From Patescibacteria group bacterium (lineage in GTDB: Bacteria; Patescibacteriota; Saccharimonadia; CAILAD01; BJGX01), in assembly GCA_026397045.1 (NCBI GenBank), contig JAPLVO010000012.1, positions 10,654 to 74,653 on the forward strand: a stretch of 64,000 bases of DNA, in the 5' to 3' direction. Shown here piece after piece: positions 10,156 through 56,888 of this stretch. How positions within the stretch are numbered: position 1 is the first letter of the stretch; the number at the start of each line of letters is the position of its first letter. The position numbers and the translations under genes were made by a program. The notes below the pieces were generated by a model that had not been told where the DNA came from, made no database searches, and was given only the letters and a program-made list of their open reading frames with translations.

Positions 10156-10682
10156 AGCACAATAAAAAACTTATCATATTTGGGGCTGGATTGCTGGTGT
10201 TAGGCTGGAGCTTGGCGTTTGGCAGGCCAAATAAGGGCACTGTCGCAGCCCAGGACGAATATGAGGTAAAAAATGTCATAGATGGCGACACATTGGAGAT
10301 AGTAAGATTTGGGAAAAATGAGAAAGTAAGATTTATAGGCATTGATACGCCCGAAACTTTGGACCCAAGAAAGCCAGTTCAATGCTTCGGAGAGCAGGCT
10401 TCCCAAAAGTCAAAGGATCGGCTATCGGGCAAAGTAGTTAGGATTGAGTTTGACCCAGTTGTAGGGGAAAGAGATAAGTATAATAGGCTACTGGCATATG
10501 TCTGGGTAAATGGCACAGAGCTATATAACCTTGAATTGCTTGAGCAAGGTTTTGCTCATGAGTATACCTATAGATCCCAAAGCTATAAGTACCAGAGCGC
10601 ATTTAAGCAAGCTGAAATGTCAGCTAAAAGTTCAGGCTTAGGGCTGTGGAGTAGTGATACCTGTTCGGGTATTACAAAATAG
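10152..10682 (+). CDS. Secreted thermonuclease (staphylococcal-nuclease-like, SNase fold)
   Basis: Signal peptide, then DGDTLEIV...VRFIGIDTPE matching the SNase active-site region. GTG start overlaps the upstream stop. Confidence 0.8.
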   Translation: MKHNKKLIIFGAGLLVLGWSLAFGRPNKGTVAAQDEYEVKNVIDGDTLEIVRFGKNEKVRFIGIDTPETLDPRKPVQCFGEQASQKSKDRLSGKVVRIEFDPVVGERDKYNRLLAYVWVNGTELYNLELLEQGFAHEYTYRSQSYKYQSAFKQAEMSAKSSGLGLWSSDTCSGITK

Positions 10683-10698
10683 CTGTATACTAGTAGTC

Positions 10699-11181
10699 AT
10701 GGAACAAGTTCTAGACCCCGTAAAAAAGCAACGCGAGCGAGACTTAATAGAGCAGTTTATTAGCATCTGTCCTAAGTATTCGGGCTGGGCTTTCGAGTCG
10801 TATTCCGAAAACCCTGATATGATTTACACAAAGGGCTCCAATAGAATCGGCTTTGATAGCGTAATAATATCTGACGACCAGGCATCTGTTCAGTGTGTCT
10901 ATAGTCCAGAGCTATGTCAGATATCGCTGCCTGGCAATATTAGTCGTAGTGAAAGACTAAATAAGATTGAGACATTTTTTGCCAATAAGCTCTTTACTCA
11001 TCTCAGGAAGTATAGTGTGCCGACTGTTTTGGTTTTCACATTAGTCGATACCCAAGAAACTTCATTTGCAGATATAATTAATATAGCCAAGAAGTTCAAA
11101 CTCCCTAAGCTCGAGGTATTCAACATTCAGTCCTACTACCTTTGCGATAATTCGCAGTATGTGAAAATTGCCTCGACCTGA
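10699..11181 (+). CDS. Hypothetical protein
   Basis: The ORF track gives 10654-11181. The ATG at 10699 avoids overlap with the nuclease gene. No recognisable motifs. Confidence 0.4.
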   Translation: MEQVLDPVKKQRERDLIEQFISICPKYSGWAFESYSENPDMIYTKGSNRIGFDSVIISDDQASVQCVYSPELCQISLPGNISRSERLNKIETFFANKLFTHLRKYSVPTVLVFTLVDTQETSFADIINIAKKFKLPKLEVFNIQSYYLCDNSQYVKIAST

Positions 11182-11244
11182 AGTATGGTATATAGTATAG
11201 GCATAAGTACTTTGCAGTAATTAAATAAATATATTAAGGAGACC

Positions 11245-12027
11245 ATGTCTAAGAAAAAAAAGATAACTATTGAGGGCTTAAGGAAATTTAACATTTTCAT
11301 GTTTTTCTTTTTTGCCCTGCAAGCTGGAATATTGTTACTCATTGCCAGCCAAAAAGTAAAATTTCCAATAACTACCAACTATTTAACTTTCGATTTAGCT
11401 ACCGAGACCTTAGTATCATCTAGTAAAACGCTGTTTGACTTGCCCTTGGTTTGGCCAGTCATAGCCTTTGTTCTAATATGTATGTTGTCGCACCTGCTGA
11501 TTTCTACAATATGGTTTAGGGGCTACAAAAAAGACCTTAAGGCTGGCATGAACCGGGCTCGCTGGATAGAATATAGTTTTTCTGCCAGCATAATGATTGT
11601 GGCTATATCTCTGCTTACTGGTATATATGACCTATCAAGCTTAATAATGCTATTTGCGCTGGTTATGGTAATGAACTTGTGTGGCTTAATAATGGAAATA
11701 CACAACCAGACAACAGCAAAAACTAATTGGATTAGCTATATTGTGGGCTGTATTGCCGGCATAGTTCCCTGGGCAGTGATTGCTATTTACTTCTGGGCTA
11801 GTGCCTCTAGTGCCACTGGCGGCGCCCAAATACCGGCCTTTGTTTACTGGATATTTATAACCATCTTTATTTTCTTCAATTGCTTCGCCATAAACATGTT
11901 CTTGCAGTACAAAAAATGGGGGCCCTGGAGCAACTACCTGTATGGCGAGAGAGTGTATATTATTCTTAGCTTGGTAGCCAAAACAGCTCTTGTATGGCAA
12001 GTATTTGCCGGCACCCTTAGACCCTAA
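11245..12027 (+). CDS. Heliorhodopsin (7-TM retinal protein with inverted topology)
   Basis: From memory of heliorhodopsin sequences (48C12, TaHeR), the 260-aa 7-TM protein has RWIEYSFSASIMIV, GCIAGIVPW, WSNYLYGERVYIILSLVAKTALVWQVF. These include the TM7 Schiff-base Lys and the TM3 Glu counterion. Strong SD AAGGAGA 6 nt upstream. Confidence 0.8.
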   Translation: MSKKKKITIEGLRKFNIFMFFFFALQAGILLLIASQKVKFPITTNYLTFDLATETLVSSSKTLFDLPLVWPVIAFVLICMLSHLLISTIWFRGYKKDLKAGMNRARWIEYSFSASIMIVAISLLTGIYDLSSLIMLFALVMVMNLCGLIMEIHNQTTAKTNWISYIVGCIAGIVPWAVIAIYFWASASSATGGAQIPAFVYWIFITIFIFFNCFAINMFLQYKKWGPWSNYLYGERVYIILSLVAKTALVWQVFAGTLRP

Positions 12028-12029
12028 AA

Positions 12030-13247
12030 ATGGCCCGCCGGTACAAGCTTAAGCGTACACTCGGTATATTCTTAGTAACTATTTATGGCCTAGGCAACAT
12101 AGTCGGAGCTGGCATATATGCTTTAGTAGGAAAAGTTGCAGGCGAAGCTGGAACAGCTACTCCATTGGCTTTTTTATTGGCATCTATCGTGGCTGGTTTT
12201 AGTGCATTATCTTTTGCAGAATTATCTAGCAGAAAACCATATAGCGAAGGTGTCTCGGCTTATGTGCATAACGCATTTCGCCGAAAGCCAGTTTCGATAG
12301 CCGTCGGCGCACTAATGGCAATCGCAACGGTTGTCTCGGCTGCCGCACTGGCTAGAGCTTTTGGAGGTTATCTTTACCAGTACACTGGTATATTTATCCC
12401 GCTTGGTGCAGCTCTTATAATTATCACTTTTGGATTGCTTTCGGCTTGGGGCATAGAAGAGTCAGCTAAGTTAGCAGCTGTACTAACGGTTATCGAGGTT
12501 CTTGGTCTGGGTGTTATTATCTGGCTAGGAAGGGGAAGTATAGTCGCTAGCGCTCAGACTCCAGCCAACTTTTTTGATATCAGTAGCGTAGGTATCACCG
12601 GCGTTTTGTCGGCAGTATTTTTGGCCTTTTATGCTTATATTGGCGTAGAGGACATTGTGCATTTGTCTGAAGAAACAAAAAAACCCAGGCTCACGGTTCC
12701 ATTCGCTATTATCGGAGCTGTAACAATAGCTACAGTTCTCTACACTCTGGTTTCAATAGTAGCCATAGATGCCGTTCCACTTGCCGAGCTTAACAAATCG
12801 GCTGCTCCCGTTGGTTTGATCTTTACTACATTATCGAGTACGCCGGGCTGGGCGATCGCTATTATTGCTCTTGCGGCTACAGCCGGAGGGGTGCTGGCAC
12901 ATATCATCAGTGGTTCGCGATTGCTTTTTGGTATGGCTGAGGCTGGTTGGCTTCACAAAAGACTGGCAATTGTACATGAGACACGCAAGACTCCAACCGT
13001 AACAATCGCGGTGGTTGTTGCTGTATCTATAGTTTTATCGACCTTCGCCGAGGTAAAGACTCTAGCGCTGGTTACTAGCTACCTTATACTAATTATATTT
13101 TCGCTGGTCGATACATCGCTTATAATTATCAAAATCAGAGACAAAAACACTAAAAAGCCAATCTTTTCTGTCAGTATGATAGTGCCTATTTTGGGTCTAG
13201 TATCTAGTATTTTACTGCTGGTGGTGCAGACCAGCATTTTGCTTTAG
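12030..13247 (+). CDS. APC-superfamily amino-acid / polyamine permease
   Basis: A 405-aa protein with about 12 TM segments and an APC-like N-terminal GxxxG region. Start is 3 nt after the heliorhodopsin stop, so translationally coupled. Confidence 0.75.
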   Translation: MARRYKLKRTLGIFLVTIYGLGNIVGAGIYALVGKVAGEAGTATPLAFLLASIVAGFSALSFAELSSRKPYSEGVSAYVHNAFRRKPVSIAVGALMAIATVVSAAALARAFGGYLYQYTGIFIPLGAALIIITFGLLSAWGIEESAKLAAVLTVIEVLGLGVIIWLGRGSIVASAQTPANFFDISSVGITGVLSAVFLAFYAYIGVEDIVHLSEETKKPRLTVPFAIIGAVTIATVLYTLVSIVAIDAVPLAELNKSAAPVGLIFTTLSSTPGWAIAIIALAATAGGVLAHIISGSRLLFGMAEAGWLHKRLAIVHETRKTPTVTIAVVVAVSIVLSTFAEVKTLALVTSYLILIIFSLVDTSLIIIKIRDKNTKKPIFSVSMIVPILGLVSSILLLVVQTSILL

Positions 13248-13255
13248 CAAATCCG

Positions 13256-14431
13256 CTAATTACCAATAATATATAGCTCTTGTTCGGCCCTGGTGACCGC
13301 GGTATACAGCCAGCGTTGCCATTCGTCTTGGCTCATTTTTGGAAAGCGTTCCTCAAAAACCAACACCCGCTTGGCCTGCGAGCCTTGAGCCTTATGAACA
13401 GTCAGGCCATAGCCGAAATCAAACAGACCGACAGAGTCCTTCTGAGGCCTTTTAGGCACAGACTTAAGTGTAGTGGGGGCACCAAATTGTTCCCTCGGTG
13501 CAAAGCCCTCAAATTTAATCCCATCAAAATCGGCCGTAATGTCCCACCATAATTCTTCATCATCATGAGCGGCTGGAGTGATTTGTTCGATAAGGCCTAT
13601 TTGCCCGTTGCTGAGGCCTGATTCGCGGCTATTTTTTAGGCAAACAATAATATCATTACGCTGTGGGTCTGGGCCCTCCATCCCTTTAAGTAGCCTCACA
13701 TGGGCATTGAGTTTTTGACGCGTGCTGTTATAGCCACAGAGTATTAGTGTGTCGGTATTGTGACTTTGCAGTATCTCTTCAATCAGATCGCCAGTAAGAG
13801 GGTCGGCATTATCTAGCTTGGCCACTCCTTCACCATAGCTCATTATTGGTATTTGATTGCCATTTCTTGCTAGTGCTGAAATCGCTATAATAGGGCTTTC
13901 AGCAGCTTGTCGCCATATTCTATCTAGCGTTAGATCCGGCTCTAGCATTAGATTAAAGCTGCTGCCAATTGGCGGCAGCTGGCCATGGTCTCCAACTGCC
14001 AGAACTGGCTTGCCAAAACTGAGGAGGTCAGCCCATATCTCCTCGCTGACCATACTAGCCTCATCGACCACCACCAAATCGACTCTCAAGAAATCGCGCT
14101 TTCGCCATTTTGGCGCATCCCCCTTACTGGACTCAGAATAATACATCAGGCCATGCAGTGTAGATATAGAATCGCCAGGCTGCAAGATATTATCAGCCAC
14201 TAATTTGCGTTTTAGCACTAGTGTTGCCTTGCCAGTATAGGCAGCAAAGCCAACCTTCATGCTCGGGATGTTAGTTTGCAAGACTCTACGCAAAGCAGCT
14301 AGCAGAGTGGTTTTGCCAGTACCAGCATAGCCACCTAGGGTAAGGTATTGTTTACCACCGCCCTTGGCGATTTTTAGCCAAGCCCCAATAGCACTTAAAG
14401 CTACGCCCTGCTGATTGGTAAGTTTTTGCAT
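13256..14431 (-). CDS. Compact SF1 helicase (RecD/Pif1/TraA-like, AAA_30 family)
   Basis: Walker A GGYAGTGKTTLL, Walker B VVVDEASMV, motif V/VI LTVHKAQGSQ and YTAVTRAEQELYIIG. Only 391 aa. Confidence 0.7.
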   Translation of the reverse strand: MQKLTNQQGVALSAIGAWLKIAKGGGKQYLTLGGYAGTGKTTLLAALRRVLQTNIPSMKVGFAAYTGKATLVLKRKLVADNILQPGDSISTLHGLMYYSESSKGDAPKWRKRDFLRVDLVVVDEASMVSEEIWADLLSFGKPVLAVGDHGQLPPIGSSFNLMLEPDLTLDRIWRQAAESPIIAISALARNGNQIPIMSYGEGVAKLDNADPLTGDLIEEILQSHNTDTLILCGYNSTRQKLNAHVRLLKGMEGPDPQRNDIIVCLKNSRESGLSNGQIGLIEQITPAAHDDEELWWDITADFDGIKFEGFAPREQFGAPTTLKSVPKRPQKDSVGLFDFGYGLTVHKAQGSQAKRVLVFEERFPKMSQDEWQRWLYTAVTRAEQELYIIGN

Positions 14432-41559: not shown

Positions 41560-43119
41560 ATGAACGATAATAACCAGAGTAACTATTGGCTAGATATATT
41601 AATATCAAGGATAATCACGGCCCACCCAACAGGCGAGCTGATTGTATCTAGTGGTATATCTCCATCGGGTCCGTATCATGTTGGTCATGGCCGAGAGATA
41701 CTCACAGCCGACTCAATTTATCGCGGGTTGCGCGAGGCTGGAAGGCAAGTCCGGCACTTGCACTTCGTGGACGCCCACGATACCCTGCGCAAACGCTACC
41801 CATATCTCCCAGAATCATACGAACAAGAAGCCGGCAAGCCACTATACAAAGTCCCGGCACCAGATGGTAAATCTGAAAATTATGCTAAGCAGTACTTTTC
41901 AGATTATCAAAAGAGCGCTAAAAAGCTGGGGATTGAAATGGAGATAATCTGGACCAACGAACTCTATGAATCTGGTGTATTTTCAGATGCCATTGGGCTT
42001 TGCCTTAGAAAGCGCGACGAAATCGCCAAGATTCTTTTTGATATTAGTGGTCGGGAAGTATCAGAAGATTGGCAGCCTATTCAGATTCTCGATCAATCAA
42101 CAGGCAAGCTCAATACCGCTAAGTTTATAGGTTACGACCATGACACCCAAAAAGCTCATTACTTAGGGGAAGATCAAAATGAATATTTCGCAGATGCCAG
42201 CAAGGGCCAGATTAAGCTGGATTGGCGGCTAGATTGGACAGCTCGCTGGAAACTCTATGGCGTTATGATCGAGGGTTTTGGAAGGGAGCATGCCACTAAA
42301 GGGGGAAGCTATGATACTGGGGTGGTTTTAGCCAAAGAAATATTTGCTATCGATGCGCCAATACCCGTGCCCTATGACACAATCAACCTCAAAGGGGAGT
42401 CTAAAAAGATGAGCTCCTCTCTTGGTAATTTAGTAAGCCTGATAGATTCTCTAGAAATTATTCCGCCAGAGGTGCTCAGATACTTCACTTTCAAGAGCCG
42501 CCCCGAAAAGCAGCTTGGCTTCGACCCCGGGCTGGGCCTCTATACATTAATGGATGAATACGCCAAAACTGAATCAGCCACCTTAGCAGGCGAAGAGCCA
42601 GCTTTTAAGCGAGCCTGGCAGATAGCCAGCTTATCTGGCGATCAGCATGTTGTTAGCACTGTGCCCTTCTCTCATATCGTGACCCTCTACCAGACTGCCA
42701 GAGGAGAAGCTGTTGTTATTCTGGAGATGCTCGAGCGCACTGGCCATAAGGCTGCCGTACAGACCCAATCTGAATCCATACTGCGCGAATTAAAGTATGT
42801 CAAGAATTGGATAGATCGTTATGCCCCGGAAAATATTAAATTTGAAATACAAAAGAAGCTGCCAGAACTTGAAATTAGTAAGGCTCAACATCAGTTCTTG
42901 GCTGGGTTACTCGATAAAATTAAGCCTTCATCCATGCAGGCCGATGAAATCCACAAGGCAGTTTATGACAGCGCTATGGCATCTGATTTGAAGCCAGCTG
43001 AAGCATTTAAGCTTATTTATAGGCTATTTTTAAATAAAGACCAGGGGCCGAAAGTTGGCTTTTTCCTTTCTAGCCTAGACAAAGACTTCGTATTAAATAG
43101 AATTGCACTAAAAGGGTAG
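41560..43119 (+). CDS. lysS: Lysyl-tRNA synthetase, class I (archaeal/spirochaete type)
   Basis: SGISPSGPYHVGHGREI (class-I HIGH region) and KMSSSLGN (KMSKS). About 520 aa, as in class I LysRS. Confidence 0.8.
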   Translation: MNDNNQSNYWLDILISRIITAHPTGELIVSSGISPSGPYHVGHGREILTADSIYRGLREAGRQVRHLHFVDAHDTLRKRYPYLPESYEQEAGKPLYKVPAPDGKSENYAKQYFSDYQKSAKKLGIEMEIIWTNELYESGVFSDAIGLCLRKRDEIAKILFDISGREVSEDWQPIQILDQSTGKLNTAKFIGYDHDTQKAHYLGEDQNEYFADASKGQIKLDWRLDWTARWKLYGVMIEGFGREHATKGGSYDTGVVLAKEIFAIDAPIPVPYDTINLKGESKKMSSSLGNLVSLIDSLEIIPPEVLRYFTFKSRPEKQLGFDPGLGLYTLMDEYAKTESATLAGEEPAFKRAWQIASLSGDQHVVSTVPFSHIVTLYQTARGEAVVILEMLERTGHKAAVQTQSESILRELKYVKNWIDRYAPENIKFEIQKKLPELEISKAQHQFLAGLLDKIKPSSMQADEIHKAVYDSAMASDLKPAEAFKLIYRLFLNKDQGPKVGFFLSSLDKDFVLNRIALKG

Positions 43120-47821: not shown

Positions 47822-50800
47822 TTGCCTAATAAACTCTCATCCCCCAGCCCCTCATATTCCAGCCCCTTATCTCCAAGTCCTTATGAGGGTCTCACCGGAA
47901 AATCTAAAGTTGGCAGCACGCCTTCACTTGACGGTATTACCCCTACAGCTCTGGGCAATCCCGACGGCAGCGATCTTGCAGGATCAACATCAGAAAAGCG
48001 ACCAGGGAGGCCACGGAAAGAACCAGCGAGGAGTTCTGATATAAAACGAATGCCCGAATGGAAGAATACCAACAAGTCCTCTACAGCCAGCCGTTCTTCT
48101 GCAGACGAACCCACGCCTCAGCGCAGTAAGCCAGAAGCTCCTGCACCTCAACCCAAAAAGCAAGAAGCTCTTGCACCCGAACCTGCCCCTGCACCCAGCC
48201 AGCCAGAAGCTCCCGCCCAGGCCGAACAGTCAGCTTCACCGCAGCTCCAAGCGCTGACGGAGCCAAGCCCAAGGGCTGATGAGACGATAGATGATTATTA
48301 CCAGCGGCTATTCGGCTTGAGTTTTGAAGAGGCCCAGGACCGTAAAGGGGATACAAATCTTTTGAGCCCGCAGCAGAAGGGTGCCTTGACAAGAGAACGC
48401 AACAGGCTCGATAAACATCTCCGCAGCCTAGACTCACAAGACAGCGATCTACCAGCTGCGGAAACCAAAAGGCTGCAAGACCTTAATTTCGTGCTGGAAA
48501 ATGCGCAGCCATTTGAACCTGGGAACAACGATGATCCGAATCTCAGATGGCGACTCCCCAGCCTCGCATCCGATAAAATGACGGTTCCTGATGCAACCTC
48601 CGAAACTAACGCCCCGACGCCAACTATCCTTGATCCGCTTACAGTAGCTGACGCTCTAGAAAGCCCGTATACAAGCCTCATAGAATCACTTAGCTTAGAG
48701 CTCGACAGCAGTGAAACCGTCGTCATTGCGGGCCAATCATACAATAAAGGCGATACCGTGTTCTATACTTCAGGTGCAGGCAATGAGGGTGAATATTTCG
48801 TTTTGACAAATACGATTGCAGACCCCCCAGGGTTGGTTTTGCAAAATGTGGAAACGGAACTTGTTTTTGCAATTTCTGGCGATACGGACCCTGCTATGCT
48901 CCGCCCCGGCTCGATTGCTAGTCCTGCTGTAGCGCCCACAGGCGAACCTGCGCTAAATTTCAGGCCATACGACGAAACCGATCCGGTCCTGGGTGGCGGC
49001 ATGGATTCGGAAACCTATAGATTTGATGATATCAAAGATCCAGCCAAGCCTCCTACTGAGGGCCCCATCGATAATCCTCCACAGGAACCAGTTGAAGAGC
49101 CTGAGCCTCCTTCGCCGTCCCCAGACCAAGGGCCTATCATATTGTACTCATTGGACACCACTGAAACAGACAAGGCCTTGTCCTTATTGAAAGCAGATGA
49201 GCAGGTAGATAAAGAGCTTCAGGAAATTCGAAAGGAACTGTTTGAGCCAAAAAACCCATCAGACAGCAGATTCGCAAGGCTGGTTCAGACAGCAGCAAAA
49301 GGGGTTAGATCGACATTTCGTCATCCAATTAAGGCTTTTAAATATATAGCCAGAAGCACAGTAACCAGAGAAGCCACCCGGCAGAGATACGCGAAAGGGC
49401 ACCTAGAAGCCTCCGAAGGAGTCGATTTCCACGACGCTTTAGCTGGGGATGTGGCTAAGCGATTAGACCTTGGGGAGGACTTCTTGCAAAATGGCGAAAG
49501 ACTGCTCGGCGAAGACAACTCTGAAGTCAGAGCAGTTAAGGACGCTTTGAATGTAGTTTTTCAGCAGGGTATTGAAGGAACTACAGACAGGGATTCCACA
49601 CTCAATGACGCCAGGCGTATATTGGCAGAAGCCCCCTGGCTAAAAGGAGGTTCCGATCAAGAAGTCCACATGCTTAAAAATCTTGAAGAGATGTACGATA
49701 GGATAACCATCGCCGTCGAGCACGAATCTGGGCTTGCCGCTATCGATGCCGCCTATCAGCTTAAAGGTGGCGAAGTCACACTTGGCGTAAACTCCGAAGC
49801 CCACAAGACAGCCACAGATAGAATTATGGAAAAACTCACCAATAGTCGGTTCAAAGCCTTGATAGTAAATGAGGCAACAATAGCTATAGCAGTAGGAGTA
49901 GTTGTTAATACGGCAGGTTACCTGGCTCGTAGCAAAGGATCTAGGTATGTCGCGGGGGCGCTGGTAGGTGGTCCTGTCGGTATCGCCTTAGTTGCAGGCT
50001 CAGCTGGTTTGTTTGCCGCGGCGAGAGAACGCACCACCTTGCGCCAAGAGCGGGCCTTAAGAATGTATCAGATAGCCTCGGGCCAATCCGAAGTAGCCAA
50101 TGACAGCGATACGGCTCCTCGATCTACCGAAGTCGATGCCTCACTCTACGAAATGGTATCTGCCAGAGATGTACTCGATGACTTCTCCAGATTAACACCG
50201 GATGATCCGGCGACCTTATCATCATCCGAGGCCAGAGAAATTCTAGCAAGTTTGGTTGCCCTCAGAACCAATCAGAGTATCGGCGACGAATCTTCGATAG
50301 ATCTAATAAAGTATTCCTCCGAGGACATGATTGAGTCCGAAAAGTCGTTATTGATGGTGGCTAGAGCCGAAGCTGAAATATTACTCAGAAATTACTATTC
50401 CAACCATCCAGATGAATTGCCAAATATTGCAGGCAGAAATTTTGATGAAAAAATCGCTGCACTTACGGAACTATCCAAGGCGGACTTAAGCTCTAATGAG
50501 ATAACCGACAGAGACAAAGTTTTCGGTAAGCTAACCAGGAAGCGGGCATTTATGAGGGGTCTTGCTACTGCTGGCTTCGCAGGTGCTGGTAGCTATATAT
50601 CGGCACAGATGAGCGAGCATTTTAGCCATCAAATTGATGGTAAAACTGTTACAGCAGGCAATCTGGCCAATGACCCCACCACCTATAGTTTTAAGGGGGA
50701 CACAATAAATATGCCTAAAGGGTATACGATACAAGGCACCTCGATTCTGGATGGAAATGGCAAACATATTGTGGACGGGCTAGTGCCGAAGGCCGATGGC

Positions 50801-53029
50801 GGGTTATCGCCAGAAAGTATCGCGCTACTAGATGCTAAGGGAATAGGGGTCGAGCAAACAGTCGTGATGCATGATTTTGTATCTACCAGAGAGGTGTCTT
50901 ACGATGAGTTTGTTAGGCTTAAACCCGAAAGGTTCCAGCAAATTTCAAGAGAAGTATGGAAAAATAACGACACAACTAGATTTGATCTTAATGAGCTTAG
51001 GGGGGATTTCAAACTTTCCGAAAATGGCGATATAGTTGTAGCCACCAACCGGCTCACCGACACGGGCTCGTTTGGCCAGGGCGAAAGCGTGGCGGCACAT
51101 TCCGAGCAGCTAGCGGGGCGGCTTAAAATATTAATGACACCAGATAAGGGCAACCAGAGCTCGGCAGTTGTCCTAGATGTCTCCCCCGATGGTACAACCG
51201 TAATACCTAAGGGTTCGGATCTTTATAACTTATTTAAGGTAGATCCAACTGCCACTGGTATTGGTCAAGTTAAGCTGGATTCGGGGTTTTTAGAAATAGC
51301 AACCCCGGGTGGACCAACCGCCGATGGATCCCAAAGCTTTCAAATACTTGCTACTCAGGTCGGTAATAACCCTCCTGGCACTGTATTAATAACAGAAAAT
51401 ATCAGTACGCCAGTGTACCAAACTACTCTGCTTGTTCCAAAAGAGACCTATATTCCAGGCAGCGACTTCCGAGCGCCTTTTATACCTATCGCAGCGCCAT
51501 TGCCTCGTAGGCCATTAGACGAAGTTATCCCTCGTGGTGTCCATGAACCATATTTGGAGTCTCCATATTTTGGATATCAGTCTGGCGAGTTTAGCCCTGA
51601 AGACGAAGATCGGATACATAGGCGTTTCTCAGAACGGTTACGCAATAATCCCGATGCTGTACTTGATCCTCGAGAGGAGATTGAGGGCTATTTAGCTGGT
51701 ATGGATCCGGAGCGCAGAGAAGCGCTGGAAGATTTAGCCGAGCAGACCGAGGCTATGAGTAATACTTGCGAAATAGCTGTAGCAATCCCGGTTAATGGTG
51801 CTCAGGAAGGTAAGAATATTTACAAAACATTACAATGGTATTCTAAACAACTAGATACAGAAGGTAACCCTCTAGATCCTGGGAAATTTGAGATTGTGTT
51901 GTTTGTAAATAAGCCTACCGACTTAGAGTGGGATGAAACATTAAGCGAAATTGAAAGATTTAAGTCCCAATATCCGAATGTTCCGATCAGGGTGATTCAA
52001 CGAGAGTATCCACCCGAGCAAGCAAGAATAGGTAGAATTAGGAGAGACATGACCGACTTAACACTCTTGCGCCAGAGTAGACGCACGGTCGATCAGGATT
52101 TAGTCGTGGTTAGTAACGATGCTGATTGCAAAGGTTTGGGCGCTTCCTACATAGCAACAATACTAGAACAAACCGAGGTACAGGCCGCCGATGGTCTGTC
52201 GGGGCGCTTAGAATGGGACCCCACTACAAATATAGAGTCCCCGTTGTATCATATGGGCGTTAAGTTCATGCAGATGCTCGATCTTATCGATAGACATCCG
52301 TCGCCAGGCTCGGGGAGGCAGGCTAGGTATCGTTACCCTGGCGCTAACTTCGCATTTAAAGCTTCAATGTATGCTGGCGTTGGTGGATACGATGAGGGTA
52401 GCGTTAAGGCCGAAGATGTCGTGCTTGGGAGGACAATTAAGATGGCCCGCCGTGGCTCTGATAAGTTTACTGGAGTTGGATTTTATGGAGGGGACAATGT
52501 TGTTTATACTGATTCCAGACGAGGTATAACTGTTTTCAACCAGGGATATCCGCCAGCAGCTCAATGGTCGAAGCTCAGCTTTGGACCTAAGGATGCCGCT
52601 CGCGAAGGAGCGGAGATAGAGGATGGTATAAATTACGATCTACTTTTAAGCGAAGAGCCCAGGCTGATTAATAAAACTCGCCAAAAAAGAGCACGAAGGC
52701 TATTTGAAGCTGAGCTATCGAGGTTTATAGAACAAACACTTGAGGAGTATCGCATTATATCCGACAACACCACCTACCATGAAGGCATGCGTATGCCAAC
52801 TGATGTAGAAATAGCTGGTAGGGCGGTGGAGGCCATGCGAATAGATGCGACTATAGAGGTTTCGAACGGTGAAGTAAGAGTTTCAGTTGTTGATGCTTCT
52901 AAGCTATATAGCTACCTCCGCGGTTATCGTAAATCTGGATTGCGCAATTATATGGCCCGAACTGATCTCGGAAGAGTTTTTTCTGGCGGAATCAATGAAG
53001 TCTTCCCCGATCTTGAAGCTGCGGCTTAA
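47822..53029 (+). CDS. Giant (1735 aa) multi-domain protein: disordered Pro/Ser/Ala-rich N-terminus, two central TM helices, C-terminal GT-A-like glycosyltransferase domain
   Basis: Uninterrupted 5.2-kb ORF with a TTG start. The N-terminal ~330 aa are low-complexity (SPSPSYSSPLSPSP, PEAPAPQP repeats, GRPRK). A hydrophobic pair lies at about residues 690-735 (IAIAVGVVVNTAGYL ... ALVGGPVGIALVAGSAGLFAAA). The C-terminal region has a GT-A pattern: IAVAIPVNG ... FEIVLFVNK ... IRVIQRE ... DLVVVSNDADC. Confidence 0.65.
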   Translation: MPNKLSSPSPSYSSPLSPSPYEGLTGKSKVGSTPSLDGITPTALGNPDGSDLAGSTSEKRPGRPRKEPARSSDIKRMPEWKNTNKSSTASRSSADEPTPQRSKPEAPAPQPKKQEALAPEPAPAPSQPEAPAQAEQSASPQLQALTEPSPRADETIDDYYQRLFGLSFEEAQDRKGDTNLLSPQQKGALTRERNRLDKHLRSLDSQDSDLPAAETKRLQDLNFVLENAQPFEPGNNDDPNLRWRLPSLASDKMTVPDATSETNAPTPTILDPLTVADALESPYTSLIESLSLELDSSETVVIAGQSYNKGDTVFYTSGAGNEGEYFVLTNTIADPPGLVLQNVETELVFAISGDTDPAMLRPGSIASPAVAPTGEPALNFRPYDETDPVLGGGMDSETYRFDDIKDPAKPPTEGPIDNPPQEPVEEPEPPSPSPDQGPIILYSLDTTETDKALSLLKADEQVDKELQEIRKELFEPKNPSDSRFARLVQTAAKGVRSTFRHPIKAFKYIARSTVTREATRQRYAKGHLEASEGVDFHDALAGDVAKRLDLGEDFLQNGERLLGEDNSEVRAVKDALNVVFQQGIEGTTDRDSTLNDARRILAEAPWLKGGSDQEVHMLKNLEEMYDRITIAVEHESGLAAIDAAYQLKGGEVTLGVNSEAHKTATDRIMEKLTNSRFKALIVNEATIAIAVGVVVNTAGYLARSKGSRYVAGALVGGPVGIALVAGSAGLFAAARERTTLRQERALRMYQIASGQSEVANDSDTAPRSTEVDASLYEMVSARDVLDDFSRLTPDDPATLSSSEAREILASLVALRTNQSIGDESSIDLIKYSSEDMIESEKSLLMVARAEAEILLRNYYSNHPDELPNIAGRNFDEKIAALTELSKADLSSNEITDRDKVFGKLTRKRAFMRGLATAGFAGAGSYISAQMSEHFSHQIDGKTVTAGNLANDPTTYSFKGDTINMPKGYTIQGTSILDGNGKHIVDGLVPKADGGLSPESIALLDAKGIGVEQTVVMHDFVSTREVSYDEFVRLKPERFQQISREVWKNNDTTRFDLNELRGDFKLSENGDIVVATNRLTDTGSFGQGESVAAHSEQLAGRLKILMTPDKGNQSSAVVLDVSPDGTTVIPKGSDLYNLFKVDPTATGIGQVKLDSGFLEIATPGGPTADGSQSFQILATQVGNNPPGTVLITENISTPVYQTTLLVPKETYIPGSDFRAPFIPIAAPLPRRPLDEVIPRGVHEPYLESPYFGYQSGEFSPEDEDRIHRRFSERLRNNPDAVLDPREEIEGYLAGMDPERREALEDLAEQTEAMSNTCEIAVAIPVNGAQEGKNIYKTLQWYSKQLDTEGNPLDPGKFEIVLFVNKPTDLEWDETLSEIERFKSQYPNVPIRVIQREYPPEQARIGRIRRDMTDLTLLRQSRRTVDQDLVVVSNDADCKGLGASYIATILEQTEVQAADGLSGRLEWDPTTNIESPLYHMGVKFMQMLDLIDRHPSPGSGRQARYRYPGANFAFKASMYAGVGGYDEGSVKAEDVVLGRTIKMARRGSDKFTGVGFYGGDNVVYTDSRRGITVFNQGYPPAAQWSKLSFGPKDAAREGAEIEDGINYDLLLSEEPRLINKTRQKRARRLFEAELSRFIEQTLEEYRIISDNTTYHEGMRMPTDVEIAGRAVEAMRIDATIEVSNGEVRVSVVDASKLYSYLRGYRKSGLRNYMARTDLGRVFSGGINEVFPDLEAAA

Positions 53030-53055
53030 ACACAAGCTTTATCCTAACAAAACTA

Positions 53056-53084
53056 TTGACAAAATGCTTATTTTATAGTATCTT
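53056..53084 (+). promoter_or_regulatory. Sigma70-like promoter at the left edge of the GC-rich island
   Basis: TTGACA, a 17-nt spacer, then TATCTT. Followed by SD AAAGGAGGG. Confidence 0.45.
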
Positions 53085-53141
53085 TGCAAATGATTCCCGT
53101 AAATCGCGGGAGTAGTAGTTTTTTAGAAAGGAGGGCCAGTG

Positions 53142-53729
53142 ATGGCCCGTACGTCAAAAGAAGTCGATGCTCTCCTAGGAGAGCTAGAAGACGCGGCAGC
53201 GCGTCATCATAGTGCACTGCTTGCGCAGTGCGCCGTGGACGACGAGGTTGAAAGGAGGTTCGACCGAGTTTTGAGTCTCTACGAGAGGCTCACCGCTAGG
53301 ATCGGGGGGCTGGCCGACCAGCACGATGCCACCGTACAGCGTGTTAACCGGCTTGAAAAAAGGGTTGACACGCTCAGCAACCCTCTTTTTACGCTGCTGA
53401 TTGGGGTGGCGGCTGTGGCTGGCTGGCTTTTCCTCAGCCTGTGGATCAAGTCCACAGTTGGCAACAACGCCCGGGTGTGGATGGACGGCCAAGAAATTCT
53501 TTGGCGGGACCACCCGCAGTTTGATGCATTAACGGGCAATATCATCGGTGGAGGCGTAGCCTTCATAGTTGGTATGACCGTAGTTTGCTTGATCATCGAT
53601 TTGATGAGTAACAGCAATCCGCAACCAAAACGCCAAAACCCGCCTGCCGTGGCGGTGGAGGAAGAACAGGTTCAACAGCCTGTCCGGGCCTTGCCCAGTC
53701 CGGCCAACGCCGGCCAGCTTAACCCGTGA
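53142..53729 (+). CDS. GC-rich island gene 1: membrane protein with a cytoplasmic coiled-coil N-terminus and two TM helices
   Basis: High-GC codon usage contrasting with its neighbours. An ATG 6 nt after the SD (the ORF track starts at the GTG at 53139). Followed by a GGTGCGTGC/GCACGCACC hairpin at 53737-53771. Confidence 0.55.
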   Translation: MARTSKEVDALLGELEDAAARHHSALLAQCAVDDEVERRFDRVLSLYERLTARIGGLADQHDATVQRVNRLEKRVDTLSNPLFTLLIGVAAVAGWLFLSLWIKSTVGNNARVWMDGQEILWRDHPQFDALTGNIIGGGVAFIVGMTVVCLIIDLMSNSNPQPKRQNPPAVAVEEEQVQQPVRALPSPANAGQLNP

Positions 53730-53888
53730 ACGGCACTGGTGCGTGCAGGGGGATTTATCCCTCCGCACGCACCACAACTTTTTGAACCAACTGCATTGTT
53801 ATCAGGTCTATAGGACAACCTGGTGGCAAGTAGGTGTTTCTAAAACACATTTTCCAATGTCCCCTTGCTCTCGAAAGGAGCTAGTACC

Positions 53889-54893
53889 ATGACATCAAAG
53901 AAGAGAACCCTGTTTGGGGTTATGGGTGGTTTTATCTTCGTTTTGTTTTTCCTGTTGTTCCTTTTAGGGGGCAATGGGCAGGCAACGCCTACAACAACCA
54001 CCACCACAACGGTATTGCCGGGGGAGTGCACCAGCCAGGTGCATTACTTCCGGCACGACTTGCCAGCCGAAGTGAACCATTTCGGCCCGGCTGCGCCGGA
54101 CGGTGATGTCCAGCAGGTCCTTGCGGACCTACACAACCGGATCTGCGTCGATCCGGCGCTGACGATGGCACTCCGTCAGTACTCTGATCGCCAGTATACC
54201 TCTCCGGAGGAACGACTGGCGATCACTGAAGGGCTCGTAGCCAACCGAGAGGCTTGGGCATTAAATGTCCTTGCTATCGAGGGCCGCCAGGCCACGGCCG
54301 TGAAGGTGGAGATTGTGAAGATGAGCGAGCCTTACCGCACGCTCTACATGGTCAACACCCCTATCCCCGGTATCTACCAAGATGCCGTGGACCGGCCGGA
54401 GTATCGTGTGCTTAGATTCACCTACGCCGATGGTTATGTCGATAACTACAAGCTCGATTGCGGGTATCAACCCGTCGAGCCTGTTTTTGCCGGCATTCCA
54501 GGCCCGCCGCCGACAACGGCGCCAGGAAAAGGTGGAAAGGTCACGCCAAGTGGCCCAAACCCACCACCGCCTGGCCCGCCACCGACAACGGCACCGCCGA
54601 CCACGGCACCACCGACCACTTGCCCGCCCACGGTGTGCAAAGGGCCGGATACCGCCCCCGCAGCCTGCATCGACAATGTCGGTGTAAGCTGTACTGGGAT
54701 TCCGGGGTCAGGTGGCTCCCCCGGCAACGGTGGAGCAATCAACCACGGAAATGATGGCTATTCGCCATCAGATCCGCCGCCGCCCACCTGGGTGGCACCG
54801 GCGCCGGTGCCAACTTCGGTGGTGGCTCTGCCATCGACAACGGCACCGCCACCACCGACCCAGAACCTCAGTCCGGGAGATATCCCGGGCTGA
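53889..54893 (+). CDS. GC-rich island gene 2: secreted or anchored Pro/Thr-rich, Cys-containing protein
   Basis: SD AAGGAG 10 nt before the ATG at 53889 (the ORF track starts at 53865). N-terminal hydrophobic segment, a poly-Thr run, PPTTAPPTTAPPTTCPPTVC repeats, and GC-rich third codon positions. Confidence 0.55.
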   Translation: MTSKKRTLFGVMGGFIFVLFFLLFLLGGNGQATPTTTTTTTVLPGECTSQVHYFRHDLPAEVNHFGPAAPDGDVQQVLADLHNRICVDPALTMALRQYSDRQYTSPEERLAITEGLVANREAWALNVLAIEGRQATAVKVEIVKMSEPYRTLYMVNTPIPGIYQDAVDRPEYRVLRFTYADGYVDNYKLDCGYQPVEPVFAGIPGPPPTTAPGKGGKVTPSGPNPPPPGPPPTTAPPTTAPPTTCPPTVCKGPDTAPAACIDNVGVSCTGIPGSGGSPGNGGAINHGNDGYSPSDPPPPTWVAPAPVPTSVVALPSTTAPPPPTQNLSPGDIPG

Positions 54894-54896
54894 GAA

Positions 54897-54928
54897 CCCG
54901 GTGGCTGAGGGGTAAAACCCTCAGCCAC
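54897..54928 (+). terminator. Perfect 12-bp inverted repeat hairpin closing the GC-rich island (I-shaped, no U-tract)
   Basis: GGTGGCTGAGGG-GTAAAA-CCCTCAGCCACC, followed by two further small hairpins. Confidence 0.5.
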
Positions 54929-55016
54929 CAACCCAAATTTCAAACTTGAACTCAGCTTGAGGGCTATCTGAGTTCAGGGTTGAATCCCTGCTAAAAAGCT
55001 AATGGTATAAATAGTA

Positions 55017-55045
55017 TTGACATATCTAACAAAAAGTGGTATTAT
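55017..55045 (+). promoter_or_regulatory. Sigma70-like promoter upstream of the LPXTG protein gene
   Basis: TTGACA, a 17-nt spacer, then TATTAT. Confidence 0.45.
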
Positions 55046-55163
55046 TCATTACCGTACATAGCCTTTGATCATTGAAAGCCAAATATCGCTAGAACTATCA
55101 TTCCTGACAGAACCGTCCCTATAAATATTATTTAATTAATCTTGTTTTAAAAGGAGTAAACTT

Positions 55164-56888
55164 ATGAAACTTAAAGCATTTGCAAAATTGGCAATACTTT
55201 CCGCAGCTATAGTGGCTGCTGTAATTGCGCCAATAACCGCAATAGCTGGATATGAGCCTGCCAACAGGCCCACTAAGACCTACGCTGGTCCTAGTACTCC
55301 AGCTTTTGACTACCCAGTATTTAATTCTTGGGTTAACACACCAAATTATGGTGATGAGCGAGCATTTTTTGACGCTGGCAATCAGACAAGCGGACCTTAT
55401 AAAGATCAGCTTGCTGTAGCTCCGGGCCAAGAAATCACCTTGCGTATGTATATTCACAACGGTGCGGCCCCAGGGCTTAATGGCACCAATTTAAATGGTC
55501 CAGGTGTTGCTAAGAACGCCCGTGTGCAAGTGTTCTTGCCTACTGCGACCTCGACTCAGCTTAGAAGCTTTGGCTATATCGTCGCCGATAATACCAACCC
55601 AGGCTGGGTAGCTGATTCAGTTGATTTCAACTCAGCTGTCCCCGTAAACATGGAATTTGTTAAGGGCTCAGCTCGATTAGCAAATGGCGCCAACCCTAAC
55701 GGTGTTGTGCTTCCAGATAGCATCGTGAATACCAACAACCAATTTAATGCCAACAGCCCTTCGGCTCCAATTGGCTATCAGACCATGAACGGTCTATTCC
55801 CAGGATGTTTCGAATTTGATGCCTTCGTAACCTTGAAGGTTAAGATCAACGGCCCTAGTCTTGCAGTTCAGAAAAAGGTAACCACTCCTGGCTCAACAAA
55901 CTGGCAAGAAAACCTTGATGTTAATTTCAACGATTCGAGTTCTACCCCTACCACTAGTTGGTTGGTGGAGTACAAGAATACCGGAACAACCATGATCACT
56001 AATGGTGTGGTACGAGACACCTTGCCTGCTAATTTGAAATTAGTTCCAGGCTCAGTGATGAACTTCGATGGTAACCACCCGCAAGGTATTGCAGTCGCCG
56101 ATAATGGCCTGTTTGCAGGCGGTGTGGGCGTGGGTAATATCGCTGCAGGCTCTAACGGCTTCTTCCGATTTAGAACAACCGTAGCAACCCCTTTTACCCC
56201 GAAAGAATGTGGAACCAAGAAGATAGTAAACACTGCACAGGCCGAAGCATCGGGTGTGGCAGTTATAAATGACACTGCTAGCGTAACAGCCACTAAAGAT
56301 ACTAACTGCGAAGTGCCTTCGGGCTTAATTTGTAAGAATCTTGATGTGACACTTTCGCCAGCAGATGCGATACTACCAAATAAGCCTACTTTTGTAGGCA
56401 CATCCGAGAAATCTGGTGCCGGTGCAATCAGCCCTTCAAAATATGAATATCATATTTCTAAGGTTACTGGCGAAACTGCAGTACCAATGCCTAATAGCCC
56501 AGTAGTGAGTGAATCTACCGAATTGACAAACACTGTCAAGGAAGCATATACATTCACTGAGGCTGGCGACTATAGGGTAGAGCTGAAGGTATTTGACAAG
56601 GAAGGTAAGCAGATCCAATCTGCCCCAGCTTGTAGCAAGAACTTTACATTAAGTGATGTTCCAGTACCTCCAGTACCTCCAGTACCTCCAGAACCACCAG
56701 TTCCTCCAGTTCCTCCAGTACCTTCAGTGAATCCGACTACTCCTGCTGTGGCTACTTTGCCAGAGACAGGTGTCGAGGCCGGTCTTGTAGGTGTGATAGG
56801 TTCTAGCGCGATGGCTATCGGTGCTCTAAAGTATCGAAAAAGCAGGAAGGATGTCATTGACGCCCTTTCCAAGGCTAGTAAACGCTAA
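55164..56888 (+). CDS. LPXTG-anchored cell-wall surface protein with DUF11-type repeat domains and a (PVP)n stalk
   Basis: N-terminal signal peptide; DUF11-like segments (V..DTLPANLKLVPGSV, LVEYKNTGTT); a C-terminal PVPPVPPVPPEPPVPPVPPVPS stalk; then LPETG, a hydrophobic stretch and a KYRKSRK sorting signal. Confidence 0.8.
   Translation: MKLKAFAKLAILSAAIVAAVIAPITAIAGYEPANRPTKTYAGPSTPAFDYPVFNSWVNTPNYGDERAFFDAGNQTSGPYKDQLAVAPGQEITLRMYIHNGAAPGLNGTNLNGPGVAKNARVQVFLPTATSTQLRSFGYIVADNTNPGWVADSVDFNSAVPVNMEFVKGSARLANGANPNGVVLPDSIVNTNNQFNANSPSAPIGYQTMNGLFPGCFEFDAFVTLKVKINGPSLAVQKKVTTPGSTNWQENLDVNFNDSSSTPTTSWLVEYKNTGTTMITNGVVRDTLPANLKLVPGSVMNFDGNHPQGIAVADNGLFAGGVGVGNIAAGSNGFFRFRTTVATPFTPKECGTKKIVNTAQAEASGVAVINDTASVTATKDTNCEVPSGLICKNLDVTLSPADAILPNKPTFVGTSEKSGAGAISPSKYEYHISKVTGETAVPMPNSPVVSESTELTNTVKEAYTFTEAGDYRVELKVFDKEGKQIQSAPACSKNFTLSDVPVPPVPPVPPEPPVPPVPPVPSVNPTTPAVATLPETGVEAGLVGVIGSSAMAIGALKYRKSRKDVIDALSKASKR
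56661..56723 (+). repeat. Seven tandem copies of a 9-bp unit (CCAGTACCT and variants) encoding the (PVP)n stalk
   Basis: Direct tandem repeat visible in the sequence, inside the LPXTG protein gene. Confidence 0.8.

Follow-up and report, generated by a model that had tools for sequence, protein, structure and literature searches.

A heliorhodopsin gene and an APC-family permease gene

The window (the whole 64-kb stretch of Patescibacteria DNA that was analyzed) carries two adjacent forward-strand genes, at positions 11245..12027 and 12030..13247. These coordinates agree with an earlier note on this DNA, as does the spacing, with the second start codon opening at the third nucleotide past the first stop codon. 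By profile search and alignment, the first ORF is a bona fide heliorhodopsin (HeR) of 260 residues with seven transmembrane (TM) segments. Specifically, it covers the entire Pfam heliorhodopsin profile PF18761 (positions 1–242 of 242, E=3.6e-90, 302 bits, cutoff 26.7) as well as the NCBIfam HeR equivalog NF038020 (positions 1–244 of 244, 317.8 bits, cutoff 100), which bears out the identity that the earlier note had proposed from sequence motifs. The protein is identical to GenBank entry MCX6804821.1, annotated as 'heliorhodopsin HeR' from a Patescibacteria group bacterium.

The HeR aligns over its full length with two structurally characterized heliorhodopsins, TaHeR from a Thermoplasmatales archaeon (PDB 6IS6, E=1e-73) and HeR 48C12 (6SU3, E=2e-48), with which it shares the seven TM segments, the counterion Glu, the Lys of the SxxxK motif and a His equivalent to TaHeR H82. 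All three of the motifs singled out in the earlier note are present, namely RWIEYSFS at residues 106–113, GCIAGIVPW at 168–176 and WSNYLYGERVYIILSLVAKTALVWQ at 228–252, and the two residues on which its assignment hinged fall where they should. E109 (codon 11569–11571) aligns with the TaHeR counterion E108, and K246 (codon 11980–11982, in SLVAK) aligns with the TaHeR Schiff-base Lys K238; all 30 of the relatives compared keep these two residues as well as S242, the SxxxK Ser corresponding to TaHeR S234. The residue aligned with TaHeR H82 is H83. The protein is a putative binder of all-trans-retinal, and a slow photocycle without ion pumping would be the family behavior to expect of it. A difference is seen at position 23, where the His of TaHeR and 48C12 is replaced by Phe (F23) in the window HeR and its close relatives; in a 30-sequence alignment, this position is Phe in 11 and His in 19. 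Seven hydropathy peaks match the seven TM segments, and 16 of the 20 Lys and Arg residues lie on the N-terminal side versus four on the other. An inverted topology with a cytoplasmic N-terminus, as in TaHeR and 48C12, is thus predicted from the hydropathy peaks and the distribution of positive charge. Whereas TaHeR comes from an archaeon, the window HeR is bacterial.

The second ORF (12030..13247, + strand) encodes a 405-residue protein that, judged by its profile matches, is an APC/SLC7-like permease (AA_permease_2, SLC7/CAT-like), in agreement with the family named in the earlier note. It matches PF13520 (AA_permease_2) at E=3.7e-43 and 148.5 bits (cutoff 27) over profile positions 2–403 of 427, and PF00324 at 78 bits (cutoff 24.6). 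The closest solved structure is that of GkApcT from Geobacillus kaustophilus (6F34/5OQT, E=5e-27, aligned over residues 5–391), a member of the same AA_permease_2 family that is somewhat longer, at about 460–470 residues. A crude hydropathy scan yielded 11 clear peaks and a possible 12th between residues 282 and 323, and the protein contains IVGAGIY and YIGVED, putative counterparts of the unwound TM1 (G-x-G) and TM6 motifs of a LeuT-type 12-TM core. With respect to substrate, all 20 matches in an NCBIfam subfamily and equivalog search fell below cutoff, the top scores being TIGR00909 (204 bits, cutoff 557) and BcaP (155 bits, cutoff 690); since every equivalog score is under its cutoff, we rejected any substrate assignment. 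The protein is identical to MCX6804822.1 ('APC family permease') in GenBank, and close homologs carry the putative JGI label 'APA family basic amino acid/polyamine antiporter'.

The pair is flanked upstream by a gene for a hypothetical soluble protein of 175 (or 160) residues (10654..11181, + strand), for which no Pfam or NCBIfam match was found. This is a conserved neighbor, in that a homolog lies directly upstream of HeR in every locus sharing the gene-order backbone described below, including L008. Downstream, a convergent gene for a RecD/PIF1-like SF1 helicase with AAA_30 and UvrD_C_2 domains (13256..14431, − strand) lies 8 nt from the permease stop. In the wider window, an Rfam scan returned zero matches and so gave no riboswitch or other known RNA at the locus. 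Pfam scans of essentially all ORFs of at least 110 residues detected no retinal or carotenoid biosynthesis genes in the 64 kb, as the earlier note had supposed for the vicinity of the pair. A retinal pathway is apparently absent from this organism, as has been reported for the host of TaHeR. The metagenome-assembled genome to which the window belongs may itself carry a second HeR.

The junction and its expression signals

The HeR stop codon TAA (12025–12027) is separated from the permease ATG at 12030 by a 2-nt spacer, giving the junction TAA-AA-ATG (12025..12032, + strand). Inspection of the junction revealed neither a Shine–Dalgarno (SD) sequence nor a −10 box upstream of the permease start. 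The HeR gene, in turn, is preceded by the SD sequence AAGGAG (11236..11241, + strand), which ends 3 nt before its ATG; a GGAG/GAGG core occurs in only 16 of 56 window genes. Because the permease gene lacks both an SD and a promoter, the two genes are likely co-expressed from a common transcript, as the earlier note had implied, and translation of the permease is probably coupled to that of HeR. The length of the gap is itself ordinary, as 16 of the 45 same-strand gene pairs in the window (36%) are separated by 5 nt or less, among them the unrelated pairs IleRS–FtsW and FtsW–SNase.

Consensus scans for promoters and terminators did not rise above the counts for shuffled sequence and served only as weak anatomy of the locus. 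A promoter-like sequence, TTGCCT-17-TATAGT (11168..11196, + strand), in the 63-nt intergenic gap before HeR is a candidate promoter for the HeR–APC transcript; it counts as weak evidence, since the six such sites found in the region do not exceed the 10.1 expected from shuffled sequence. A terminator-like hairpin with a T-rich tail (13216..13246, + strand), which overlaps the last permease codons, is a candidate transcript end, and was likewise judged weak evidence (eight such sites against 4.1±2.4 expected).

Gene order in related lineages

The two genes sit within a backbone of conserved order, IleRS–FtsW/RodA–SNase–hypothetical–HeR–APC–TrxB, that defines a syntenic clade of approximately 14 lineages. 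A first survey of a genome collection had pointed to the window species as the sole carrier of the HeR–APC adjacency, a view overturned by closer metagenomic relatives. Direct adjacency is in fact found in five to six of the clade lineages, namely the window species, L095, L096, L141/142, L100 and L143/144, with similar junctions (2–11 nt, opening on ATG or GTG) in L095, L096, L141, L100 and L143. IleRS is just 66–73% identical between lineages that have retained both the direct adjacency and the tight junction.

Elsewhere in the clade the pair is broken. An RND gene on the opposite strand lies between HeR and APC in four lineages (L090/91, L098, L101 and L147), and a same-strand gene for a 392-residue hypothetical protein does so in L145. 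A permease that has been parted from HeR carries its own extended −10/TATAAT box near the start codon, as in L090 and L148. In L007, which is approximately 91–93% identical to L095 at the nucleotide level, a deletion of about 1.15 kb has left a 14-codon permease stub beside an intact HeR gene. Conversely, L146 retains the hypothetical upstream gene and the APC–TrxB segment, but a search at E<=1e-3 revealed no HeR there. Partner loss at the locus leaves room for a second copy that may lie elsewhere in the L007 and L146 genomes. The helicase gene between APC and TrxB is confined to the window lineage and L095/L007, APC and TrxB being directly adjacent in the other backbone lineages; from this gene order, it is a lineage-specific insertion that marks the downstream boundary of the HeR–APC operon.

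In a survey reaching beyond the clade, 129 Pfam families were represented among 109 non-redundant downstream neighbors of HeR. An AA_permease occurred five times, four of them within the clade and the fifth in L059, the only case of HeR followed by APC in approximately 95 non-redundant HeR lineages from elsewhere. We considered L059 as an independent coupled operon and rejected this, as its permease shows only 26% identity and is preceded by a 31-nt spacer with a separate TATAAT box, and its HeR gene overlaps an SDR-like gene instead. Transporters of any kind (APC, MFS, RND or ABC) make up roughly 17 of the 109 downstream neighbors as a raw proportion, so that membrane transporters might be enriched at this position.

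Taken together, the comparison of related genomes extends the direct adjacency to five or six lineages and does not bear out, in that form, the conserved heliorhodopsin–transporter operon raised in the earlier note. A recurrent association across lineages was not found, direct pairing being limited to one clade. As read from gene order, the pairing is conserved only by descent within a single genus- or family-level syntenic clade, where it has been repeatedly broken by RND or hypothetical-gene insertion, by the L007 deletion and by the absence of HeR from L146.

Separate histories of the two genes

Sequence divergence at the locus indicates that HeR and the permease were exchanged separately and have distinct recent histories. 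Between the window and L095, the permease genes show dS=0.51 and dN=0.05, while dS is saturated for all of the flanking backbone genes. The 90% identity of the two permeases was initially considered a sign of strong constraint, a reading that we rejected in view of this difference in dS. For HeR, the nearest allele to that of the window (95–96% amino acid identity, dS=0.66) resides in a permease-free locus of the order SOUL–lipase–HeR–MFS–DUF2779, where the resemblance does not extend beyond the ORF. Purifying selection is strong on both genes, with dN/dS of approximately 0.10 for APC and 0.05 for HeR.

Relation to known heliorhodopsin systems

Several elements of this locus were already known, including the GenBank annotation of both genes, the existence of Saccharimonadia heliorhodopsins and the idea of host-derived retinal. 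Heliorhodopsins of Saccharimonadia and other CPR bacteria were described by Chiriac et al. 2022 (PMC9166423), where a role in oxidative-stress mitigation is proposed for them; they share with the window HeR the phylum-level group, the SLVAK motif and an origin in freshwater metagenomes. The rhodopsin-roles section of that paper makes no mention of a permease pairing, and our literature search found no report of HeR paired with an APC permease. Rhodopsin-bearing Saccharibacteria lacking blh have been described, and acquisition of retinal from their hosts has been proposed, for HeRs as well (PMC9296517).

With respect to operon partners, OcHeR binds and light-regulates the product of its adjacent operon gene, the ABC exporter OmrDE (PMC11109279), and AbHeR binds and modulates its neighbor, glutamine synthetase (GS; PMC9529153). 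The window pair shares the arrangement of these partner operons, with both genes on the same strand and no promoter between helR and its neighbor, and, as in OcHeR–OmrDE, the partner is a membrane transporter. Here, however, that partner is a secondary APC/SLC7-type permease, a class missing from the ten recurrent HeR partners cataloged in PMC11109279 (GS, NAD synthetase, photolyase, MerR, TerC, ABC, SDR, alpha/beta hydrolase, DUF2177 and DUF2238). The window pairing, a putative counterpart of the OcHeR and AbHeR systems, differs from them in being confined to one clade, within which it has been repeatedly broken.

Interpretation

Overall, our results are best accommodated by an inherited two-gene unit maintained through gene-order inertia, in which HeR and the permease share light-independent co-expression only, a reading to which we assign a probability of roughly 0.6. 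HeR and APC would then constitute a two-gene transcription unit in the genome of a tiny, symbiotic-type freshwater member of the Saccharibacteria/Patescibacteria. The HeR gene would encode a retinal-binding photosensor expressed from its own promoter-like site and strong SD, and the permease, its gene having neither signal, would depend on the HeR transcript for its synthesis, probably through termination–reinitiation. The arrangement would have been inherited from the ancestor of the syntenic clade and would persist in a very compact genome with neither protein needing the other, consistent with the retention of each gene without its partner in some relatives. Insertions, deletions and allele replacements recur both between the two genes and at their flanks, which makes this slot a hot spot for such changes. 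HeR itself would most likely function as a generalist light sensor, promiscuous in its partners and supplied with exogenous retinal, and the permease most likely a general importer of a nutrient (amino acid or polyamine) for an auxotrophic cell. What the sequence comparisons show directly is the identity of the genes, their key residues, the anatomy of the junction and how the adjacency is distributed and arose; co-transcription, translational coupling, a lack of direct regulation and an outside source of retinal are inferred.

Some observations run against gene-order inertia and lend a degree of support to a regulatory partnership, in which HeR would tune amino acid or polyamine import by light. 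The survival of adjacency and a tight junction across lineages with only 66–73% IleRS identity is compatible with selection for co-expression, and five to six deeply diverged lineages keep same-strand junctions of 2–11 nt that lack separate expression signals. L059 provides a second, independent same-strand HeR–APC adjacency. The possible enrichment of membrane transporters among downstream neighbors, and the room for second copies elsewhere in the genomes, also weigh against inertia. Mechanistically, HeR could contact the permease after co-translation, through its positive cytoplasmic loops or a TM surface, and a long-lived HeR photo-intermediate could alter uptake from the host or the environment. 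The cytoplasmic loops of HeR are rich in Lys and Arg (16 of 20 on the N-terminal side), and accessory membrane proteins are known partners of SLC7/APC transporters, examples being MgtS for GkApcT and the SLC3 heavy chains for the LATs. By analogy, the published binding and modulation of adjacent gene products by HeRs, a transporter among them, would fit as well (PMC11109279, PMC9529153). Against this, a gene on the opposite strand separates HeR from the permease in four lineages, either partner can be lost alone (permease deleted and HeR retained in L007, HeR absent and permease retained in L146) and the pairing is missing from about 95 other HeR lineages. APC permeases also stand outside the ten recurrent partner groups and have no reported pairing with HeR in the literature searched. 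Moreover, a 95–96% identical HeR in a locus without a permease, together with the independent swap of the permease allele, argues that HeR and APC are not a co-adapted pair. On balance, we treat regulatory partnership as a tentative possibility. Its more specific form, in which an SLC7-type permease has HeR as its light-switched accessory subunit and nutrient uptake is gated by light in an auxotrophic episymbiont unable to make retinal, we consider unlikely.

Two further explanations carry much less weight. The permease might supply HeR with its retinal chromophore or a precursor, as the window contains no retinal or carotenoid genes and host retinal has been proposed for Saccharibacteria that lack blh (PMC9296517). 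The protein is nonetheless a typical AA_permease_2/SLC7-like transporter, the relatives of which carry amino acids and polyamines, and the reciprocal losses in L007 and L146 also speak against such a supply. Moreover, retinal is hydrophobic, and it reportedly enters HeR from the membrane via a lateral opening (Shihoya 2019, cited in PMC9296517), all of which makes this explanation very improbable. We give next to no credence to an assembly or binning artifact, or to one of the ORFs being a decaying pseudogene. Separate metagenome samples have yielded the identical HeR on at least 23 contigs, the permease adjoins it on each of the six examined, and protein identity is 98–100% across contigs with the same arrangement. 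In addition, both ORFs are intact, full-length relative to their profiles and under the strong purifying selection noted above.

The function of heliorhodopsins is being worked out partner by partner, and every recurrent operon neighbor has so far proved to be a regulated target, namely glutamine synthetase, photolyase and an ABC exporter. The HeR–APC pairing is limited to one clade, either partner can be lost, and the two genes have separate recent histories; we therefore regard it as a candidate for binding and transport assays and not as a demonstration that uptake is light-gated. Natural variants seen among the relatives would serve as ready-made controls, comprising direct junctions, RND-interrupted loci, a permease-deleted locus, a HeR-less locus and an unlinked HeR of 95% identity. 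If the light-switched accessory-subunit reading were true, it would represent the first rhodopsin-regulated secondary transporter and a defined role for HeR in CPR bacteria. An APC permease would add a new class of HeR partner, in CPR/Saccharibacteria that depend on amino acid import.

Identity of the two proteins

Overall, the identification of a heliorhodopsin (HeR) gene followed by a permease gene is right, and the earlier note placed both ORFs at exact coordinates. Specifically, the 260-aa ORF at 11245-12027 (+) contains all three of the motifs quoted there, and an HMM search gave an end-to-end match to PF18761 (E=3.6e-90) as well as 317.8 bits against the NCBIfam HeR equivalog (cutoff 100). 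Its best solved relative is the Thermoplasmatales archaeon heliorhodopsin TaHeR (6is6, E=1.1e-73), followed by HeR 48C12. Residues were mapped on the TaHeR alignment and on a clade alignment, and the Glu and Lys proposed as counterion and Schiff-base residues do occupy those sites: E109 aligns with the TM3 counterion Glu of TaHeR (E108) and K246 with its TM7 Schiff-base Lys (K238). S113 and H83 are the counterparts of TaHeR S112 and H82, and S242 supplies the Ser of SxxxK (here SLVAK). All 30 aligned relatives share E109, S242, K246 and H83. Position 23 differs: the His that TaHeR and HeR 48C12 carry there, a residue that has been implicated in the proton-accepting group of HeRs, is replaced by Phe in the window protein (codon 11311-11313) and its close relatives; across the same 30 sequences, 19 carry His and 11 Phe. 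A hydropathy scan revealed seven TM peaks, and the distribution of K+R (16 on the N-terminal side vs 4 opposite) predicts that the N-terminus lies inside, in the inverted orientation typical of heliorhodopsins.

The adjoining 405-aa ORF at 12030-13247 (+) is an APC-family protein, as proposed (PF13520, E=3.7e-43), and the closest protein of solved structure is GkApcT, of the CAT/SLC7 type (E about 5e-27). No substrate can be named for this permease, since all substrate-specific NCBIfam models scored far under their cutoffs.

Genomic setting and retinal supply

GenBank already lists both exact proteins with consecutive accession numbers, MCX6804821.1 ('heliorhodopsin HeR') and MCX6804822.1 ('APC family permease'), and assigns them to a Patescibacteria group bacterium. 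At least 23 contigs, drawn from separate 'GROS21-1' metagenome samples, carry the identical HeR, and gene order is the same on all six contigs among the matches listed, so the locus is no assembly artefact. Relatives bearing names are overwhelmingly Candidatus Saccharibacteria/Saccharimonadales, and the remaining window genes are typical CPR housekeeping. The window also encodes a lysyl-tRNA synthetase of the class I type (41560-43119 (+); PF01921, E=3.6e-93), which is uncommon among bacteria, and four consecutive ORFs (1735, 196, 342 and 574 aa) lacking a Pfam match at 47822-56888 (+), where G+C is raised (0.50-0.52 vs about 0.44); the 1735-aa product may be a large CPR surface protein.

With respect to the chromophore, the reported lack of nearby retinal-biosynthesis genes extends across the 64-kb window, in which no blh/BCD, crtI, crtB or crtY-type gene was found and the sole isoprenoid enzyme is undecaprenyl-diphosphate synthase. 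Rhodopsin-bearing Saccharibacteria are reported to lack blh, and the same study proposes Actinobacteria hosts as the retinal source and notes quick retinal uptake by HeR via a lateral opening (PMC9296517). A separate study records 80 occurrences of Saccharimonadia HeRs, with the SLVAK motif (PMC9166423).

The HeR–permease junction

Two bases, AA, separate the HeR stop codon TAA (12025-12027) from the permease ATG. HeR is preceded by a Shine-Dalgarno sequence, AAGGAG (11236-11241, +), and by a promoter-like TTGCCT-17-TATAGT (11168-11196, +) that a consensus scan located in the 63-nt upstream spacer; neither an SD nor a -10 box was found in front of the permease. Given these signals, co-transcription is the natural reading, and permease translation probably depends on ribosomes terminating on HeR. 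The suggested co-expression is reasonable from anatomy, with the consensus scans themselves not above shuffle expectation. So short a spacer is ordinary here: of the 45 pairs of neighbouring same-strand genes in the window, 16 overlap or lie no more than 5 nt apart, among them the functionally unrelated IleRS-FtsW/RodA and FtsW-SNase. Many window genes lack a Shine-Dalgarno and have a TATAAT-like box whose end lies only about 5-10 nt ahead of the ATG (upstream of 14524, 16000, 29606, 41560, 43132, 44821, 56960 and 13256(-), for example), and a GGAG/GAGG core precedes only 16 of 56 genes, which suggests widespread leaderless mRNAs in this genome.

Distribution of the adjacency

Homologs of the window proteins were located in 149 loci, of which 80 came from species-representative genomes, 47 from JGI metagenomes and the remainder from exact-protein look-ups. 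As the genome scan took the best 80 of at least 590 confirmed HeRs by query similarity, this census is valid for HeRs of about 49-80% identity rather than for all HeRs. One syntenic clade is united by a common backbone, IleRS-FtsW/RodA-SNase-hyp-HeR-...-TrxB-(L21)-ParA-ParB, with IleRS only 66-73% identical between lineages. The permease directly follows HeR in the window species and in the comparison loci L095, L096, L141/L142, L100 and L143/L144 (2-11 nt apart, the permease starting with ATG or GTG and lacking an SD), an arrangement that is probably ancestral to the clade. An opposite-strand RND/SecDF-type gene of ~880 aa separates the two in L090/L091, L098, L101 and L147, and a same-strand 392-aa hypothetical membrane protein does so in L145. 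The more distant syntenic relative L008 has no permease within 6 kb downstream of HeR.

Each gene is also kept somewhere without the other, and few positions in the block are as unstable as the HeR–permease slot. L007 matches L095 at about 91-93% nt identity with the same flanking genes, and a clean deletion of ~1.15 kb (L007:6775-6870 vs L095:6775-8007) has taken out the permease, leaving a decayed 14-codon stub (ATG TCT CAC CAG CAT AAG ... TAA) directly after the stop of an intact HeR. L146 retains the backbone and permease (hyp-107-aa ORF-404-aa hyp-APC-TrxB), with HeR not detected at E≤1e-3; its place, at L146:2242-3818, is taken by an acidic 107-aa ORF that is unrelated to it and a 404-aa hypothetical membrane protein, the latter homologous to the L145 insert and showing only faint DUF3137/DUF2207_C matches. 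The most constant HeR neighbour in the clade, above the permease, is hyp, which persists in HeR-less L146; in the window it is a soluble protein with no family match (10654-11181 (+)). Convergent with the permease, with 8 nt between stop codons, lies a RecD/PIF1-like SF1 helicase gene (13256-14431 (-)) that looks like a lineage-specific insertion, being confined to the lineages of the window and of L095/L007; other relatives have APC-TrxB directly.

When the immediate downstream neighbour of HeR was scored in 109 non-redundant loci, 129 Pfam families were represented, most commonly tRNA U5-methyltransferase (9) and MFS (6). AA_permease appeared five times, four in the clade and once in L059, a distant lineage whose permease is a different APC (26% identity), preceded by a 31-nt spacer that contains a separate TATAAT box. 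At L059:5367-8122, HeR shares 8 nt with the SDR-like NAD(P)-binding gene upstream of it, SDRs being a partner class already catalogued for HeR operons (PMC11109279). Remoter homologs of the window permease, at 60% and 53% identity, have unrelated gene neighbourhoods with no HeR. Conservation of the pair, which the earlier note had proposed checking in relatives, thus holds as direct adjacency in several clade lineages, and fails where the genes are split or one is lost; outside the clade, among the loci surveyed, an APC permease follows HeR only in L059, where it is the different one described above.

Separate histories and the meaning of the pairing

Synonymous divergence between the window and L095 is saturated throughout the backbone, with protein identities of 67% (IleRS), 78% (FtsW), 61% (SNase), 65% (hyp), 80% (HeR), 77% (RecD-like) and 74% (TrxB). 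The permease (12030-13247 vs L095:6778-8007) is 90% identical, with dS=0.51, dN=0.05 and uniform nt identity along the gene; in all other lineage pairs no gene of the block is less conserved than the permease (56-67%). Such a low dS amid saturated flanks points to a permease allele exchanged recently and on its own, and indicates gene-specific horizontal replacement in the same chromosomal slot.

The closest alleles of the window HeR (95-96% protein and 88% nt identity, dS=0.66, dN=0.03) lie in a permease-free locus, DUF6790-SOUL-lipase-HeR-<MFS-DUF2779, and nt similarity is confined to the HeR ORF (L087:3928-4716 and L094:6001-6777 vs window 11251-12026). One 262-aa HeR of this type (P0246, MCX6805396.1) has an accession only 575 from that of the window HeR and, by this proximity, may be another HeR copy within the window's own MAG; if one MAG does carry both, this would suggest either paralogs subject to gene conversion or lineages living together that exchanged alleles.

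In terms of function, HeR binds and light-regulates the adjacent operon product in two published cases, glutamine synthetase (PMC9529153) and the ABC exporter OmrDE (PMC11109279). APC permeases are absent from the ten recurrent partners catalogued in the latter study, as are Patescibacteria from the taxa it names, and full-text literature searches that combined heliorhodopsin with amino acid permeases or transporters found no publication on such a gene pair. With partner operons known and APC unlisted, HeR-APC is a fresh instance of a known arrangement, not a new type of system. A near-identical HeR works without an adjoining permease, which argues against a co-adapted pair. The adjacency is best explained (probability about 0.6) as gene order inherited within a compact genome, the two genes having no obligate functional link. 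Direct light-regulation of the permease by HeR, on the pattern of those two cases, is the less likely reading but a real possibility that can be cleanly tested, and the natural variants of the locus would be usable controls.
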